Below are positions 56,596 through 64,000 of a DNA stretch of 64,000 nucleotides, piece by piece (within the stretch, counting starts at the first letter, position 1; each line of letters opens with the position of its first letter). Source of the stretch: Actinomycetota bacterium. GTDB taxonomy: Bacteria > Actinomycetota > UBA4738 > HRBIN12. A model generated the notes under the pieces. The model saw only the letters and a program-made list of their open reading frames with translations. It did no database searches and was not told where the DNA came from. Made by a program: the position numbers and the translations under genes. Location of the stretch: NCBI GenBank assembly GCA_040754475.1, contig JBFMCN010000036.1:24801-88800 (forward strand), given 5' to 3'.

Positions 56596-57342
56596 ATGCT
56601 GCTTGGCGCCATGTGGGTCCTCGCCTTGGGAGCCGGCGCCGTCGCTCTGGCCTTCGCCGGGGTCCTTGCGCGCCAGTGGCTCTTCCATCGACGTCCCCAT
56701 CAGGCGGTGTGGGCTGTCGCGATGCTCATGTACGCGGCGGCCTCGCTCGCGCTGTTCCTGGGCTTGCTGGACGGGTGGTCGGCCGGCGAGTTCAAGGTGT
56801 ACTGGCTCTTCGGTGCGATCCTGAACGTCCCCTGTCTGCTGCTCGGCGAGCTGTACCTCCTCGTGCGCCGTCGCGTGATCGTGGACGGCCTTCTCGTCGC
56901 CCTCCTGTTCCTCACGGCGTTTGCCGTCTCACGTGTTCGTACGGCCACGATCGTCGGCAGCCTGTCGACGGATCTGCCGCTGGGGAAGGACGTGTTCGGA
57001 GACGGCTCGGTGCCGCACCGGCTCGCCCAGTACTACGCGTACCCTGCGTACGTCCTGCTCGTTGCCGCATGCGGGTGGTCGGCCTGGCGGATGCGTGGCA
57101 GGCCGGAGCTCAGGGACCGCTTCGGTGGGACGCTTCTGATTGCGGTGGGCGCCACGATCGTGGCGATCGGGTCGGGGGTGGGAGCGGGCCTCGAAGTGGT
57201 TCCCGTGCTTTCCGTTGGCCTGCTCGCCGGGGTTGCCGTCATGTTCTGGGGATTCCTTAGGGCCTCCGGATCGGGAGCGCGCTCCGGCGGGGGGGCAGAG
57301 CCCAGTGCCGGTCGGCCGTGGCCCTTCCGACGCAGGGCTTGA
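56596..57342 (+). CDS. integral membrane protein (about 6 TM helices), function unknown
   Basis: Strongly hydrophobic 248-aa ORF. Confidence 0.5.
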   Translation: MLLGAMWVLALGAGAVALAFAGVLARQWLFHRRPHQAVWAVAMLMYAAASLALFLGLLDGWSAGEFKVYWLFGAILNVPCLLLGELYLLVRRRVIVDGLLVALLFLTAFAVSRVRTATIVGSLSTDLPLGKDVFGDGSVPHRLAQYYAYPAYVLLVAACGWSAWRMRGRPELRDRFGGTLLIAVGATIVAIGSGVGAGLEVVPVLSVGLLAGVAVMFWGFLRASGSGARSGGGAEPSAGRPWPFRRRA

Positions 57343-57383
57343 GCATTTGTGCGCCGATCACGCCCTGGGCTAGCATCCCGGCC

Positions 57384-58025
57384 GTGAGCGAGCGCCCCGT
57401 CCCCGAGGCCACCGTGGGGCGCCTTCCCATCTACCTGCAAGCGCTCGTCGAGATCGGCCAGGGCGGGGCGTCGACGGTCTCGTCAGAGGCGCTGGGGGAG
57501 ACCGCCGGGGTCAACTCGGCGAAGGTCCGCAAGGATCTTTCGCATCTGGGGTCGTACGGGACGCGAGGCGTCGGCTACGACGTCGCCTACCTCATCCACC
57601 AGATACGTCGAGAGCTGGGGCTCACCGAGTGCTGGCCGGTCGTGATCGCGGGTATCGGCAACCTCGGTCACGCGCTCGCAAACTACCCGGGCTTCGCCGA
57701 CAGGGGATTCCGGACGGCGGCCCTCGTCGACACGGACCCGACGAAGGTGGGGGAAGTAGTGGGGGGCCTCACCGTCCGCCACGTGGACGAGCTTCCCGAG
57801 ATCCTGCGGGAGCACGGTCCGGCGATGGGCGTGATCTGCACGCCGGCCTCCCAGGCTCAGGCGGTGGCCGACCGGCTCGTGGCCGCCGGGGTGCGCTCGA
57901 TCCTGAGCTTCGCTCCGGTGACGATCCTGGAGCCGGCGGGCGTTTCGGTGAGGAAGGTCGACCTGGCCGTCGAGCTCCAGATCCTCGCGTTCCACGAGCA
58001 GCGCAAGCGGGCGCTCGCGACGTGA
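57384..58025 (+). CDS. rex: redox-sensing transcriptional repressor Rex
   Basis: N-terminal winged helix (GRLPIYLQAL...SSEALGE.AGVNSAKVRKDLSHLGSYGTRGVGYDV) plus Rossmann NADH domain (VIAGIGNLG). Confidence 0.85.
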   Translation: MSERPVPEATVGRLPIYLQALVEIGQGGASTVSSEALGETAGVNSAKVRKDLSHLGSYGTRGVGYDVAYLIHQIRRELGLTECWPVVIAGIGNLGHALANYPGFADRGFRTAALVDTDPTKVGEVVGGLTVRHVDELPEILREHGPAMGVICTPASQAQAVADRLVAAGVRSILSFAPVTILEPAGVSVRKVDLAVELQILAFHEQRKRALAT

Positions 58026-58095
58026 AGATGGGCAGACGGGCGGTGGAGAGGCGCGTAGCGATCTCTCGTCGGGGGCTGACGGTCGTGGGGGCCTG

Positions 58096-58521
58096 ATGGA
58101 TCTCGCCCGTGCGCGGAGGATGTTCGGTGGGCTGCCGGTCGCGAACGTGGCCACGGTCGGTCCTGGGGGAACGCCCCACGTCGTGCCGCTCTGGTTCGTG
58201 TGGACCGAGGACGCGATCTATGTCTCGACGCGCCAGCCCAGCCGGACGTGGAGCAACGCGAACGCCGATCGGAGCGTATCGCTCGCCATAGACCTTGGGC
58301 GGAGCTGGGTGGAGATCGCAGGGATCGTCGTGGAGGGAAGCGCCGAGCCGCTGGCAGCGGACCACCCGTCGATGCGCAAGCCGATCTCGGCCTGGCACGA
58401 GAAGTACCGCTCGCTCCTTGCCGGCGACGGCTTCGAGCGCTTCTCGGAAGAGGTCGAGCGTCTGGTCTTCCTGCGGGTCGTCCCCGAGCGCGCGCGGTCA
58501 TGGGACCACGCCCGCGGGTAG
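58096..58521 (+). CDS. pyridoxamine 5'-phosphate oxidase-like FMN/F420-binding split-barrel protein
   Basis: ANVATVGPGGTPHVVPLWFVW is the PPOX-class N-terminal signature. Confidence 0.7.
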   Translation: MDLARARRMFGGLPVANVATVGPGGTPHVVPLWFVWTEDAIYVSTRQPSRTWSNANADRSVSLAIDLGRSWVEIAGIVVEGSAEPLAADHPSMRKPISAWHEKYRSLLAGDGFERFSEEVERLVFLRVVPERARSWDHARG

Positions 58522-58556
58522 CCTTCATTGCCGATTCGAAGGGCCGTTGTCTAGGC

Positions 58557-58574
58557 TTGAGAACGGATTCACAA
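58557..58574 (+). promoter_or_regulatory. Rex operator (ROP)-like site TTGAGAA-CGGA-TTCACAA
   Basis: 17 of 18 positions match the consensus TTGTGAA-N4-TTCACAA. Lies about 50 nt upstream of the GGR gene start and 530 nt downstream of the rex gene's 3' end. Confidence 0.55.
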
Positions 58575-58624
58575 GTCGTCGGAAAGCTGCGGAGTCTTCA
58601 CAGACGGTTGGGGACGGCCACGTC

Positions 58625-59875
58625 GTGACCGATACGGCAAACACCAGACGAGACGTCGATGTGCTCGTCGTGGGGGCAGGCCCCGGAGGTTCGGCGACCG
58701 CCTACCACCTGGCTCGCCACGGCATCGACGTCATGCTGGTCGAAAGATCCGCATTCCCGCGCGAGAAGGCGTGCGGCGACGGGCTGACGCCCCGCGGGGT
58801 CAAGGCGGTGATCCGAATGGGGGTCGACCCTGACGACCCCGGCTTCGAGAGGGTTCGAGGCCTTCAGGTGCACACGCGGAAGGTCACTCTGCACTTCCCG
58901 TGGCCGACTCTGCACGACTACCCCGACTACGGGCTCATTCGCACACGTATGGAGCTCGACGATCTGCTCGTGCGCCGCGCCGAGAAGGCCGGCGCCACGC
59001 TTCACGAGAGGATCGAGGCGGTCTCGCCCGTCCTCGTCGATGGCTGGGTCGCCGGCGCCACGGTCCGTCCCGTCGACGGAGGCGAGCCGGCGGAGGTCCG
59101 AACGCGGTTCATCGTCGCCGCCGACGGCGCCTCCTCTCGCTTTGCCGCCCAGGCCGGCGTCGGTCGAGACGCGTCTCGCCCGCTGGGGATCGCGGCGCGC
59201 CGCTACTACCGAACGAATCGCCGCCCCGGTCCCTGGATGGACGTCTGGATGGACCTGTGGGACGAGGATTCGCTCATGCCGGGCTTCGGCTGGATCTTCC
59301 CGCTTGCCGATGGTCGCGTGAACGTCGGGGCGGGGCTCCTGAACACATTCAGGAACTTCAAGAACGTCTCCGCGCAGCGGGTCTTCGACGCGTTCTGCAG
59401 TACGCTCCCGCGGGACTGGGGCGTGGGCGAGGAGACCTCGGACGGCCGCCTTCTCTCCGGTCCGCTCCCGATGGCGCTCAACCGCGGCCCCCAGGCAGTA
59501 CCGGGAATGCTGGTGGTCGGTGACGCGGCGGGACTCGTGAACCCGTTCAACGGAGAGGGGATCGCCTACGCGATCGAGTCGGGGGAGATCGCCGCAGAGC
59601 TGATCCACGACGCTTTGGTCAAGGATCGGCCAGGACTCGCGCACATGTATCCGGCGGTTCTACGGGAGCGATATGGGCGGTACTTCCGCGTTGGTAGGGA
59701 GTTCGTTCGACTCATAGGGAACCCGAAGGTCATGCGAGTGCTCACCGAGTACGGTCTCCCGCGGCAGTGGCTGATGCGCTTTGCCCACCGGTTCATGAGC
59801 AACCTCACGGACGGCAGGAAGGGCGACGCACAGGACCGATTGATGGACGCGCTTCTCAGACTGGTTCCGGCGTGA
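58625..59875 (+). CDS. geranylgeranyl reductase family FAD-dependent oxidoreductase (MenJ-like menaquinone side-chain reductase)
   Basis: DVLVVGAGPGGSATAY FAD motif, CGDGLT, and GGR-family C-terminal region. Confidence 0.75.
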   Translation: MTDTANTRRDVDVLVVGAGPGGSATAYHLARHGIDVMLVERSAFPREKACGDGLTPRGVKAVIRMGVDPDDPGFERVRGLQVHTRKVTLHFPWPTLHDYPDYGLIRTRMELDDLLVRRAEKAGATLHERIEAVSPVLVDGWVAGATVRPVDGGEPAEVRTRFIVAADGASSRFAAQAGVGRDASRPLGIAARRYYRTNRRPGPWMDVWMDLWDEDSLMPGFGWIFPLADGRVNVGAGLLNTFRNFKNVSAQRVFDAFCSTLPRDWGVGEETSDGRLLSGPLPMALNRGPQAVPGMLVVGDAAGLVNPFNGEGIAYAIESGEIAAELIHDALVKDRPGLAHMYPAVLRERYGRYFRVGREFVRLIGNPKVMRVLTEYGLPRQWLMRFAHRFMSNLTDGRKGDAQDRLMDALLRLVPA

Positions 59876-59924
59876 AAGGGAGGAAGGCGGGGATGCTGTC
59901 CGGGTTCCAGATAGAGTCCGGCCC

Positions 59925-60932
59925 ATGAGCAGTGGCCTGCTCCCTGGGGTCGCGCCGCCGGACCCGACGCTCGAGCGAGAGATACGCGGTCGGCTGCGCG
60001 AGGTCGAAGCGGCCCTGGAGAAGGCCGTGCGGGCCGACTCGGGCATGCTTGGTGAGACGGCCGCGTACCTGCTGGCGGCCGGCGGCAAGCGCTTCCGGCC
60101 GATGCTGATCCTGCTCTCCGGATACTTCGGCGACCCGGCGGACCCCCGTCTGATCCCTGGATCGGTCGTGATCGAGCTCGTTCACGTGGCCACGCTGTAC
60201 CACGACGATGTGATCGACGAGGCGGACTCGCGCCACGCGGTTCCGAGCGCGAACGCCAGGTGGAGCAACACCGTTGCGATCCTCACCGGTGACTACCTGT
60301 TCGCGCGAGCGTCCGAGATAGCGGCAGAGCTCGGGACGGACGTTTGTGCCCTGCTGGCGCGCACGATCGCAACGCTGTGCGACGGGCAGATCCGCGAGGT
60401 CGAGGCCGCCGGGCGTCTGACCCAGACCGAACAGGCCTATCGAGAGATCATCCGCCGCAAGACGGGGGCGCTCATCGCCGCCTCATGCAGGCTGGGCGGG
60501 ATGCTCTCGGGCGCTCCGGCTCCGTTCGTCGAGGTGCTCGAGGAGTTCGGTGAGGCGCTCGGCATGGCTTTCCAGCTTTCGGACGACATCATGGACATCA
60601 CTTCGACCCAGCTCGAGCTCGGCAAGGAGCCGGGAGTGGACATGAAGGAGGGCGTCTACACGCTCCCAGTGCTCCACGCGCTCGCTACCGCCGGGCAGCG
60701 GGATGAGCTGGCTCGGCTGCTCGCTGCAGGACCACCCGCGGAGGAGCGTCTGGACCGGGCGCTTGAGATAGTGCGCGCAGGGGACAGCTTGGCGCACGCG
60801 AAAGCGGCCGTCGCCGCCGAGGTCCGCCGGGCAACCGACCTTGCCCGGCAGCTCCCCGACAACGTCTCTCGCGGGGCCTTGGTCACGCTCGCCGAGTTCC
60901 TCGCGACGCGCTGCGGGGCCGGGCGGTCGTGA
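59925..60932 (+). CDS. polyprenyl diphosphate synthase (trans-IPPS, GrcC-like)
   Basis: First DDxxD motif ([11 protein letters not shown]) and second (LSDDIMD). GKRFRP region. Confidence 0.85.
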
Positions 60933-61345
60933 CGGGCTTGTTGCTAGAATCCCCGCTGCTCGGAGAAGCATCCACAAGCGTGGAGACCTACTACCAGTCC
61001 TACGGGGTCGTCCTCGCGGTCCTGGTCGCTGGCGCGGTGCTCGTCGCGGCCGCATTCGGGATCGCGCGGCTGCTGGCGCCTCACCGTCCGCTGCCCGACA
61101 AGCTCAAGACGTACGAGTGCGGTATCGATCCGGTCGGGGAGGGATGGTCCCAGAGTCAGGTCCGCTACTACGTCTACGGGTTCCTCTTCGTCATCTTCGA
61201 CGTCGAGAGCGTGTTCCTCTTCCCGTGGGCCCGGGTATTCGAGGGACTCGGCTATCAGGCCGTGATCGAGATGGCCATCTTCATCGGGATCCTCGCGGCC
61301 GGTCTCGTCTACGCGTGGCGGAAGGGGGTCCTGCGTTGGGCCTGA
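60929..61345 (+). CDS. nuoA: NADH-quinone oxidoreductase subunit A
   Basis: YECGIDP...[26 protein letters not shown] overlap with the upstream gene. Confidence 0.9.
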
Positions 61346-61848
61346 TCGAGAAGACGTCGCTCCCCAAGCTTCAGCCGGTCAAGTTCATCCTGAACTGGGG
61401 TCGGCGCTACTCGCTCTGGGTGATCAACTTCGGTCTCGCGTGCTGCGCCATCGAGTTCATCGCGGCCTCGACGTCCAAGCACGACTTCATCCGCTTCGGA
61501 GTCATTCCGTTCGCCCACGGTCCGCGGCAGGCCGACCTGCTCGTGGTGGCGGGGACTCTCACCGACAAGATGGCTCCGGTGGTCAAGCGTGTGTACGAGC
61601 AGATGCCGGAGCCGAAGTACGTGATCTCCTACGGTTCGTGCGCGAACTGCGGGGGGCCCTACTGGGACAGCTACTCGGTCACGAAGGGCGTGGACCAGAT
61701 CGTGCCGGTGGACGTGTACGTGCCGGGCTGCCCGCCCCGCCCCGAGGCCCTGCTGCAGGGGATCATGAGGCTGCAGGAGAAGATCGCGAAGGAAGACATC
61801 AGGGAGAAGTGGAGTGGCCAGCACACGGCGCCCGCTACCACCCCCTGA
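61336..61848 (+). CDS. nuoB: NADH-quinone oxidoreductase subunit B
   Basis: [35 protein letters not shown] start overlapping the nuoA end. Confidence 0.9.
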
Positions 61849-62341
61849 GGTCGAGTCGCGCCTGCGGGCGAGTTTCGGCGATGACGTGCTTTCGTTCGAG
61901 GATCAGTACGGGCACGCGGTCGTTTCGGTCGCGCCGGCCCGCTACCGGGACGTGGCCATCTTCCTCCGCGACGATCCGGATCTCGCGTGCGACTTCTGCG
62001 ACTTCGCGGGCGGTGTCGATCTCGGCTCGGCCGGGTTCGAAGTGGTGACCCACCTCTACTCGACAACGCACAACCACAATGTCCGTCTGAAGGTTCGGCT
62101 TCCGCACGAGAACCCGGTGTGCCCGACCATCTCCGACGTCTTCCCGGGTGCGAACTGGCACGAGCGCGAGACAGCCGAGATGTTCGGGATCGTCTTCGAG
62201 GGGCATCCGCAGCCTGTGAAGCTGCTGCTTCCGGAGCCTTTCGAGGGTCATCCGCTGCGAAAGGACTTCCCCCTGATCAGCCGCGAGGTCAAGCCCTGGC
62301 CGGGGGCAATAGAGGGCGAAGAGGCGGAAGAGGAAGAGTGA
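61814..62341 (+). CDS. nuoC: NADH-quinone oxidoreductase subunit C (30-kDa subunit)
   Basis: [20 protein letters not shown] motif. 175 aa. Not fused to NuoD. Confidence 0.85.
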
Positions 62342-63342
62342 TCGTGGCTGCTCAGGGCGTGAGCATCTTCAACGACTGGATCGGCAACTTCTGGGTCGTC
62401 CTCGTCGTCAAGGCCATCGCCGCCCTCGGGTTCTTCTTGATCGCGGCGCTGGCGATCGGCTATCTGGAGCACAAGGTCCTTGCCCACATGCAGGCGCGGC
62501 TCGGACCGATGTACGCGGGTGGCTTCCACGGCTGGGCCCAGCTCCTCGCCGACGCGGCGAAGTTCATCCAGAAGGAAGACGTGATCCCAGCCGCGGCCGA
62601 CCGGTGGGTGTTCTCGCTTGCTCCTGCGGTCGTGATGATCCCGTACGTCGTCATCTTCGTCGTCATCCCCTTCTCCAACACGATCTACGCGGAGAACCTC
62701 GACGTGGGGATCTTCTTCGTGATGGCGATCGGGTCCATGAGCGTGATCGGGATCCTGATGGCGGGATGGTCCTCGGCCAACAAGTTCTCGCTGATCGGGG
62801 CTCTCAGGGCGGCGGCTCAGCTCATCGCCTACGAGCTGCCACTCATCCTGGCGGCGGCGGCCGTCGTGATGCAGGCCGGCACGCTATCGCTGATAGGCAT
62901 CGCCGAAGCCCAGGACCGGTACTGGTTCGCGTTGACCCAGCCGATCGGGTTCCTCATCTTCCTGACTGCATCGCTCGCCGAGCTGGCGCGTTCGCCCTTC
63001 GACATGCCCATCGCCGACTCGGAGATCATCGCGGGCGCGTACACCGAGTACACGGGCATGAAGTTCGCGTTCTGCCTGCTGTCCGAATACGCAGGCATCG
63101 TCGCGCTCTCCGCGATCGCCTCTGTCCTGTACCTCGGCGGTTACCAGGGGTTCCTCGGGGTACCCGAGCCGCTCTGGATGGCGGCCAAGATCGGCGCGTT
63201 ATCGTTCTTCGTCATCTGGCTGCGGGCCACGTACCCGCGCATGCGCGAAGACCAGCTCCAGCGGTTCTCTTGGCTGGTGCTGATCCCGTTGGCGCTCGTC
63301 CAGATCGTCGTGGTCGGGCTGGTGAAGGTCGCGGTCGGGTAG
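62338..63342 (+). CDS. nuoH: NADH-quinone oxidoreductase subunit H
   Basis: [36 protein letters not shown] overlap with the nuoC stop. Confidence 0.9.
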
Positions 63343-63360
63343 GCCGGAGAGCGGGGAAGC

Positions 63361-64000
63361 GTGGCGATCGAGGAGAAGGGCGTCCGCAGGCCGGAGAAGG
63401 AGGTCTCAGGCACCGGCCTGGGCCTGCTCAAGGGCCTCGGCGTCACCCTCAAGCACTTCATGAGGAAGACGGTGACGCAGCGGTATCCGGAGGAACGGCC
63501 GGACCTCCCCCCCCGCACACGCGGCGTGATCGCGCTGAAGCAGGAGAACTGCACCGTCTGCTACAAGTGTGCGCGTGAGTGTCCCGACTGGTGCATCTAC
63601 ATCGATGCGCACAAGGAGACCCACCAGCCGGCGTCCGTCGGCAAGGCCCGCTCGGTGAAGGTGCTCGATCGCTTCGCCATCGACTATGCGCTCTGCATGT
63701 ACTGCGGGATATGTGTCGAGGTCTGCCCCTTCGACGCCCTGTTCTGGAGCCGGGAGTTCGAGTACGCGGAGTACTCCGTCGTGGATCTCATCCACGAGAA
63801 GGAGAGGTTGCAGGAGTGGACCTACACGGTTCTGCCCCCGCCGCCCCTCGAGGAGGGAGCGGAGATGCTCGCCCGCCCGACTGAGGTCGCCGACGTCACA
63901 GCGGCAGAGGAGGCCGTGGAGCCCGCCGCCGCTGCTCCAAGCGCTGCTCCGAGCGCCGCTCCGAGCACGTCCGTCGCTACCGCTGAGACAGGACCCGCTC
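63361..64000 (+). CDS. nuoI: NADH-quinone oxidoreductase subunit I (2x[4Fe-4S]), partial at the window edge
   Basis: [12 protein letters not shown] and [12 protein letters not shown] ferredoxin motifs. Low-complexity Ala/Pro/Ser C-terminal tail continues past 64000. Confidence 0.85.

Follow-up and report, generated by a model that had tools for sequence, protein, structure and literature searches.

A candidate Rex operator ahead of a MenJ-like reductase gene at a rearranged nuo locus in an uncultured actinobacterium

Background

Repression of respiratory operons by the redox-sensing repressor Rex, in particular repression of the nuo genes for complex I, is textbook knowledge for Streptomyces. 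The locus described here raises the question of whether this kind of control extends to a gene encoding a geranylgeranyl-reductase (GGR)-family flavoprotein, and to a truncated set of nuo genes, in an uncultured member of the Actinomycetota. The locus is contained in a 64,000-nucleotide stretch (the window, 68% G+C) of contig JBFMCN010000036.1 of assembly GCA_040754475.1, in which a rex gene is followed by an 18-bp inverted repeat resembling the Rex operator (ROP), by the GGR gene, by grcC, and by nuo genes that run up to the end of the window (Table 1). A preliminary description, made from the sequence of the window, had called the repeat a near-consensus operator and had predicted NADH/NAD+-responsive control of both the GGR gene and the truncated nuo set. 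The reading that we prefer, to which we assign a probability of roughly 0.7, is that the GGR promoter would be under Rex repression relieved by NADH, with Rex bound over the -10 and start-site region.

Results and discussion

The candidate operator

Of the 14 positions specified in the consensus TTGTGAA-N4-TTCACAA, the repeat, TTGAGAACGGATTCACAA, agrees at 13; its spacer has the correct 4 bp, its right half-site is perfect, and its left arm reads TGAGA. Restoring the T at position 4 would give TTGTGAACGGATTCACAA. The match at 17 of 18 positions given in the preliminary description is the same figure once the four N positions are counted, and the distances given there were likewise accurate, as 50 nt lie between the end of the site and the GGR start (GTG 58625), where about 50 had been stated, and the site lies 531 nt past the rex stop (58025), where about 530 had been stated. 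The site is the sole ROP-like match in the window, even when 3 mismatches are allowed. None of 100 dinucleotide-preserving shuffles gave any match with 1 mismatch or fewer, and the analytic expectation at this G+C content is 6e-4 per 64 kb, or approximately 0.05 per 5 Mb. A scan with a weight matrix, proposed in the preliminary description as a check, was run within the window with a matrix made from orthologous sites, and the site stood well above background (22.8 bits, with the next-best 18-mer at 11.5 bits); in 200 simulated sequences of 64 kb, the highest score was 18.8 bits. The observation of the site is confirmed.

The site is intergenic, a point on which the variable-length gaps in the alignments of relatives and the NCBI start call concur. 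The GGR product from GTG 58625 has 416 amino acids, and a 100%-identical NCBI protein (P0121, from an Actinomycetota metagenome-assembled genome, MAG) has the same length. A longer GGR frame from 58295, in which the site would be coding, was rejected for four reasons: it overlaps the PPOX-family gene that lies between rex and the site, the similarity of relatives begins at residues 1-12 of the product from GTG 58625, the lengths of the upstream alignment gaps are not divisible by three, and 416 amino acids is also the length of the identical NCBI protein. No RNA family was matched in an Rfam scan of positions 57000-61500.

The candidate regulator

The product of the rex gene matches the Pfam models for the N-terminal, winged-helix DNA-binding domain (PF06971, residues 6-53) and the Rossmann domain (PF02629, residues 84-179), both above the gathering scores, and it scores 335.5 bits against the NCBIfam Rex equivalog NF003992, for which the cut-off is 226 bits; NF003993 and NF003995 were also passed. 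It aligns over its full length with the T-Rex proteins of Thermus aquaticus and T. thermophilus (1XCB, 3IKT, 3IKV, and 2DT5; E=1e-46 for 3IKT/1XCB). The recognition helix and wing are near-identical (KVRKDLSHLGSYGTRGVGY in the window and QVRKDLSYFGSYGTRGVGY in T-Rex), and in the alignment to 3IKT/1XCB, GIGNLG and VDTDP correspond to the Rossmann motif GxGxxG and to the Asp-containing segment VDxDP of T-Rex. The residues taken to contact DNA or NADH follow the T-Rex structures. Thermus belongs to a different phylum. The domain scores and the alignment place the window protein in the Rex family, as the preliminary description had it.

Positional conservation

To place the site in context, 80 genome loci centred on GGR homologues were fetched, scanned for the motif, and mapped for the window's genes. 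We also compared the two nearest relatives found through a protein database, L164 and L165, whose GGR and PPOX-family proteins are 79-80% and 84% identical to those of the window, respectively, and three long contigs (L161-L163) that hold the full layout in relatives. The GGR gene directly precedes nuoA in 43 loci, from uncultured Actinomycetota, Nocardioides, Jiangellaceae, Actinomadura, Microbispora, Micromonospora, and Frankia, and an ROP with 2 mismatches or fewer was found within 300 nt upstream of the GGR gene in 42 of these, the sole exception being L026, which holds just 20 nt of upstream DNA; such a site was found before nuoA in 0 of the 43. Where the GGR gene is more than 1 kb from nuoA, which is the case mostly in Streptomyces, an ROP was present before nuoA in 25 of 26 loci and before the GGR gene in none of the 26. 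In total, 832 kb of loci contained 77 sites with 2 mismatches or fewer, comprising 49 upstream of GGR genes and 28 others, nearly all of which are in nuoA upstream regions. The operator therefore tracks the head of the nuo operon, and the GGR gene is under the operator whenever it is the first gene.

L164 and L165 carry an identical perfect ROP, TTGTGAACGACTTCACAA, at the position aligned with the window site, within surrounding bases that differ. Furthermore, the Streptomyces loci compared here carry TTGTGACCTGCTTCACAT before nuoA, and the ROP of S. avermitilis nuoA1 that was footprinted by Rex is exactly TTGTGACCTGCTTCACAT (PMC5355995). In S. avermitilis, nuoA1-N1 was de-repressed in a rex mutant, and NADH lowers the binding of Rex (PMC5355995). 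With this positional conservation and this experimental precedent from Streptomyces, the assignment of the site in the window as a putative Rex operator is well supported. A further ROP-like sequence, TCGTGAACTTCTTCACGA (2 mismatches), recurs within the nuoJ1 coding sequence of relatives (L102:1865, L106:1829, L110:1947, L135:1866, L136:1901, L161:11729, and L162:11794) and was judged to be a coding coincidence, which a genome-wide Rex scan would flag falsely.

Promoter geometry and the tandem operators of relatives

The closer relatives L001-L009 and L161-L163 carry two tandem operators approximately 30-34 bp apart, of which the proximal one is usually perfect, and each of the two comes right after a -10-like hexamer (TAGGCT or TAGGGT, and TAGCAT). 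The window site aligns with the distal member of these pairs and with the single perfect ROP of L164 and L165. Directly before the distal operator, relatives have TAGGCT, TAGGGT, TACGCT, or TAGATT. A -35-like TTGCCG, an 18-nt spacer, and TA(G/C)GCT are common to the window, L164, and L165, with the sequence of the spacer varying; in all three, the operator starts on the last T of the -10-like hexamer. The -35-like place is occupied by TTGCCC, TTGAAC, or TTGGCC in L001-L009. This geometry would be that of a repressor occluding the -10 and start-site region. What is left of the proximal operator in the window aligns under the perfect TTGTGAAAGTTTTCACAA of L002, L006, L007, L009, and L161-L163, and the proximal site is decayed in L164 and L165 too (TTCAACAG).

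Loss of the nuoA-N block

In L161-L163, ctaA/B on the minus strand are followed by genes for a polyprenyl synthase and a PPOX-family protein, the two ROPs, the GGR gene, the 14 genes nuoA1 to nuoN1, and grcC; past grcC, the layout continues with TGcTAGAAT, a Rex-like site, and nuoA2, B2, C2, H2, and I2. In the window, the GGR gene leads straight to grcC, and the nuoA1-N1 block of relatives, approximately 15.5 kb, is absent at the locus. The junction (59876-59928) retains pieces of both of its former flanks: a strong Shine-Dalgarno sequence after the GGR stop is followed by ATGCTGTCCG, which matches the three opening codons of nuoA1 in L164 and L163; next come GGTTCC and the element GATAGAGTCCGGCCC-ATG, which in relatives lies between nuoN1 and grcC. 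In L164 and L163, nuoA1 opens with ATGCTGTC(C/G)GAGTAC right after the GGR gene, and in L161-L163, GATAG(A/G)GTCGGnnCGATGAGC is found after nuoN1 and before grcC. Read in this way, the scar shows that the 14-gene nuoA-N block was deleted at this locus in the lineage of the window. L165 and L081 share the GGR-grcC layout but with a junction sequence unlike that of the window, which suggests an independent deletion or later remodelling. The GGR-grcC junctions of these two loci (L165:3075-3180 and L081:985-1090) are nearly identical to each other and contain a triplicated GAGAGTCGGGGCC(A/G)TG unit.

The GGR product passes TIGR02032 (227.6 bits; cut-off, 158.8), and PF01494 and an N-terminal GAGPGG motif are present. 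The MenJ equivalog NF045655 is still the best-scoring specific model, at 236.5 bits, but its cut-off is 700 bits, so the term MenJ-like used in the preliminary description is appropriate at the level of the family and does not extend to the equivalog. Many GGR homologues with 66-72% identity are labelled menaquinone-9 beta-reductase by JGI, which is naming and not a test. For GrcC, the best NCBIfam matches (mycobacterial nonaprenyl synthase and HepT) are under their equivalog cut-offs.

Table 1. Genes and sequence elements of the locus (positions are those of the window; promoter elements and operator sites are putative)
Feature	Coordinates	Strand	Remarks
rex, redox-sensing repressor	57384..58025	+	213 amino acids; Pfam, NCBIfam, structure alignment
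PPOX-family (F420-type-like) gene	58096..58521	+	between rex and operator; PF01243 above cut-off
-35-like hexamer TTGCCG	58528..58533	+	conserved in window, L164, and L165
-10-like hexamer TAGGCT	58552..58557	+	last T is first T of operator
ROP candidate TTGAGAACGGATTCACAA	58557..58574	.	1 mismatch, T4 to A
Proximal ROP remnant	58586..58603	.	right half TTCACAG (58597-58603) alone survives
GGR-family flavoprotein (MenJ-like) gene	58625..59875	+	first gene past operator; TIGR02032
Deletion scar	59893..59928	+	Shine-Dalgarno sequence and ATGCTGTCCG fused to pre-grcC element; 11-codon mini-open reading frame, stop overlaps grcC ATG
-10-like TAGAGT, possible leaderless grcC promoter	59912..59917	+	7 nt before grcC ATG
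grcC/hepT-like, long-chain polyprenyl diphosphate synthase	59925..60932	+	PF00348, 208.7 bits
Extended -10-like TGCTAGAAT before nuoA2, possible internal promoter	60942..60950	+	conserved element
Degenerate Rex-like site TCGGAGAAGCATCCACAA	60960..60977	.	5 mismatches in window
nuoA2	60980..61345	+	PF00507; probable true start GTG 60980, not 60929
nuoB2-nuoC2-nuoH2-nuoI2	61342..64000	+	PF01058, PF00329, PF00146, nuoI translation; nuoI runs off window end

The second nuo cluster and its Rex-like site

The gene order GGR-grcC-nuoA-B-C-H-I proposed in the preliminary description was borne out by the Pfam assignments. Up to the end of the window, the nuo set consists of A, B, C, H, and I and falls short of the 14 subunits of a full complex I, and a tblastn search with NuoD, NuoE, and NuoF of L001 found no match anywhere in the 64-kb window. 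The same composition is widespread: in 80 of 80 metagenome loci chosen around relatives of NuoH from the window, nuoA2-B2-C2-H2-I2 occurs without D, E, F, or G, and this nuo2 cluster is normally placed after the nuoN1-grcC part of a complete complex I operon. Homologous clusters have the order A-B-C-H-I-(J)-K-L-M-N. In L102, the cluster extends past I through K, L, M, and N, where it stops, and no NuoD was found; an extended open reading frame bearing the NuoK domain there has room for NuoJ, which received no score of its own. The absence of NuoD, the Q-site subunit, from a complex-I-like module is unusual, and the module may borrow it from the first operon. At its C-terminus, NuoI2 of the window is extended by a stretch in which Ala, Pro, Glu, and Ser abound and a short repeat occurs (63830-64000); this stretch runs off the window end.

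Between grcC and nuoA2, an element (T)TG(C/T)TAG(A/G)AT is common to 41 sequences (40 loci and the window), and it is followed by 4-12 nt, a Rex-like 18-mer, and the nuoA2 start. In 39 loci, the 18-mer has the form T(T/C)G(A/G)GAA-N4-TTCACAA with 2 mismatches or fewer and always A or G at position 4; it has 4 mismatches in L081 and 5 in the window. In most sequences, the 18-mer is followed by GC and the GTG of GTGGAGACCTACTACCAGTCCTACGG (VETYYQSYG), the conserved nuoA2 start directly past the site in relatives, and therefore nuoA2 of the window probably starts at GTG 60980 and not at the longest possibility, 60929. An element of similar kind precedes grcC, as TAGGGT or TAGAGT is found 7 nt before the grcC start in L161-L163 also, and this spacing would fit a leaderless grcC transcript.

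The preliminary description had placed the GGR gene at the head of a grcC-nuoABCHI string. The gene order is in agreement with this, but the conserved promoter-like elements before grcC and before nuoA2 suggest that the GGR-grcC-nuo string is not a simple operon. Because the site before nuoA2 is degenerate, Rex control of the truncated nuo set would depend on read-through from the GGR promoter. The prediction that Rex controls both therefore divides: control of the GGR gene is likely, judging from the conserved operator, but control of the truncated nuo set, with its own promoter-like elements and its 5-mismatch site, is uncertain. The preliminary description had left out these promoter-like elements before grcC and nuoA, as well as the PPOX-family gene between rex and the site and the location of the mismatch at position 4.

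Proposed mechanism and its weak points

The sequence, the statistics, the identity of the protein, the positional conservation across loci, and the deletion scar are observed. In the mechanism that we propose, it is the binding, the promoter elements, and the direction and strength of regulation that we infer. At a low NADH/NAD+ ratio, a dimer of the Rex protein encoded at 57384-58025 would bind the 18-bp inverted repeat, whose first base is also the last one of the -10-like TAGGCT. The repeat would cover the transcription start, so that binding would block RNA polymerase at the GGR promoter, and a rise in NADH would release Rex and lead to de-repression. In origin, the operator would be the surviving distal member of an ancestral tandem pair heading the GGR-nuoA..N (complex I) operon, as seen in relatives. 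After the deletion of nuoA-N, it would directly govern the GGR gene, and grcC and the nuoA2 cluster lacking D, E, F, and G would be reached only via read-through.

Several observations weigh against this mechanism. The one mismatch of the window site sits at position 4, which is T in 45 of 45 orthologous sites, and the binding of Staphylococcus aureus Rex drops most with substitutions at positions 4 or 5 (PMC2883068). The second, proximal operator of many relatives is lost in the window. A promoter scan of the E. coli type found nothing in this DNA of 68% G+C, the promoter elements being proposed from their conservation only, and a terminator scan of the same type gave nothing useful in it. 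There is also some circularity in the weight matrix, whose training sites were selected for their likeness to the consensus. Finally, there is no operator upstream of rex itself (57200-57384, with nothing within 3 mismatches), unlike in Streptomyces, and therefore autoregulation as in Streptomyces is not predicted. A candidate operator in this region, TTGTGCGCCGATCAC at approximately 57346, was rejected, as its half-sites stand one base too close together and it departs from the consensus by more than 3 mismatches.

The most serious alternative, which we regard as considerably less probable than Rex control of the GGR promoter, is that the site is a decaying relic, on which selection for Rex control was relaxed after the loss of nuoA-N, leaving the GGR gene, grcC, and the nuo2 cluster essentially independent of Rex. 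On this reading the core change in the distal operator would be disabling. The alternative would account for the change of T4 to A at the most binding-sensitive position, in an otherwise invariant column, for the reduction of the proximal operator to a half-site, for the 5 mismatches before nuoA2, and for the deletion scar where nuoA-N is expected, and it would agree with the fact that across loci the operator tracks the head of the nuo operon and not the GGR gene as such. However, L165, which also has the GGR-grcC layout, retains a perfect operator, and therefore the loss of nuoA-N by itself does not remove selection. Furthermore, the site agrees at 13 of 14 positions, with no mismatch in one of its half-sites, and rex adjoins it. 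A mismatch at position 4 is also not fatal in other systems: the S. aureus srrA operator is the only natural site with such a mismatch that still binds Rex in vitro (PMC2883068), and S. avermitilis Rex binds well to probes with one or two mismatches, with half-sites footprinted too (PMC5355995). In addition, A or G at position 4 is conserved in the sites before nuoA2 of 39 loci, and therefore such variants can be maintained. The perfect half-site, the tolerance of mismatches in S. avermitilis, and the conserved position-4 variants weigh against writing the site off. The term near-consensus is right numerically but probably overstates the affinity, because position 4 is invariant in orthologues and binding-sensitive in S. 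aureus; the change of T4 to A probably makes the window operator weaker than the perfect operators of the nearest relatives.

Another alternative is that the palindrome is bound by a regulator of the CRP/FNR family rather than by Rex. The motif of actinobacterial Crp/GlxR regulators is of the type TGTGA-N6-TCACA, and this core is contained in the Rex consensus, so that the two kinds of site cannot be fully separated by sequence alone. However, when orthologous sites were chosen on the core GTGA-N6-TCAC alone, positions that lie outside the CRP core were near-invariant in a background of 68% G+C (T1 in 36/36, A7 in 33/36, T12 in 36/36, and A18 in 34/36), and this extended Rex motif argues against a plain CRP-type site. 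Furthermore, the left arm TGAGA of the window site departs from the CRP core too, the window contains a rex gene, and the same motif before Streptomyces nuoA1 is an experimental Rex site (PMC5355995). Binding by a CRP-type regulator is quite improbable. Least probable is a chance palindrome without function, for although motif-like 18-mers do occur in coding DNA, as with TCGTGAACTTCTTCACGA in nuoJ1 of seven loci, the site is intergenic, the matching position is occupied in dozens of orthologous loci, and the shuffles, the matrix scan, and the analytic expectation per window effectively refute this explanation.

Neighbouring genes

The PPOX-family product scores 56 bits against TIGR03618, under the cut-off of that model. 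Its orthologue (44-84% identical) is directly upstream of the operator in L001-L004, L006-L016, L164, and L165, and PF01243 genes were called at the matching place in L161-L163. The nearness of rex to the site, which formed part of the preliminary description, holds for the window, but this adjacency is not conserved, and among the loci compared rex is beside the operator only in the window. No rex gene was found within 5 kb in any of L001-L016, where a polyprenyl synthase gene precedes the PPOX-family gene, and in L165, the membrane protein encoded upstream is shared with the window (80% identical), but the position of rex is taken by an opposite-strand, ferredoxin-like gene.

Comparison with known systems

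A second, partial nuo cluster (nuoA2...N2) without the NADH-oxidising module E/F/G is known from Streptomyces, where it keeps NuoD and is not known to include NuoC. The cluster in the window is likewise an extra one without E/F/G, but in contrast to that of Streptomyces, it keeps NuoC and has no NuoD; nuoA2 or nuo2 is mentioned in Streptomyces papers. For the first cluster, the closest parallel to the window is nuoA1-N1 of S. coelicolor and S. avermitilis, which shares with it the repressor family, the 18-bp consensus, and the logic of the target, namely the head of a complex I operon, with an operator that in the window would overlap putative core promoter elements. The differences are that, in the window and in most of the sampled actinobacteria other than Streptomyces, the GGR gene comes first, with the operator ahead of it; that the window has no nuoA-N genes at the locus; and that the window has neither an operator before rex nor the rex-hemACD arrangement, as rex is followed by the PPOX-family gene and not by hem genes.

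The S. aureus srrA operator resembles the window site in that its only notable defect is at position 4. S. aureus is a Firmicute, however, and its Rex prefers A/T-rich spacers, whereas the spacer in the window is CGGA. In Mycobacterium tuberculosis, the gene for MenJ (Rv0561c) adjoins that for GrcC1 (Rv0562), which places a GGR-family flavoprotein beside a long-chain polyprenyl diphosphate synthase as in the window. However, the window protein scores far below the MenJ equivalog cut-off, and the adjacency of the GGR gene and grcC in the window arises from a deletion and not from ancestral synteny.

Conclusions

The control proposed here is of an ordinary, already well-known kind for respiratory genes, although the site is weakened and the operon downstream of it is rearranged, and the finding extends known biology to an uncultured actinobacterial MAG. 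Across many actinobacterial families, wherever a MenJ-like reductase gene is first in the nuo operon, the Rex operator precedes it, and therefore quinone saturation and complex I would share one NADH-sensing switch. A full-text literature search joining Rex with MenJ or geranylgeranyl reductase, which did not cover curated Rex regulon listings, returned nothing relevant. In addition, the deletion of the complex I genes from behind the Rex switch is documented here in one lineage. The more interesting lead is the widespread nuo cluster without NuoD, E, F, and G, which has its own variant Rex-like site.

A tentative extension, which we consider rather unlikely, is that Rex operates a respiratory switch with two tiers in this lineage, in which strong tandem operators act on GGR-complex I and weak position-4 operators act on nuo2. 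If this were true, perfect tandem operators would hold the GGR-complex I operon, and the T(T/C)G(A/G)GAA-N4-TTCACAA class would be deliberately weak, tuning a second module that has no NuoD, E, F, or G. At the locus in the window, complex I would have been deleted and the remaining operator itself changed to the TTGAGAA form, and Rex would thus be left controlling the saturation of the menaquinone side chain, while polyprenyl synthesis and the orphan nuo2 module would come under its control by read-through.

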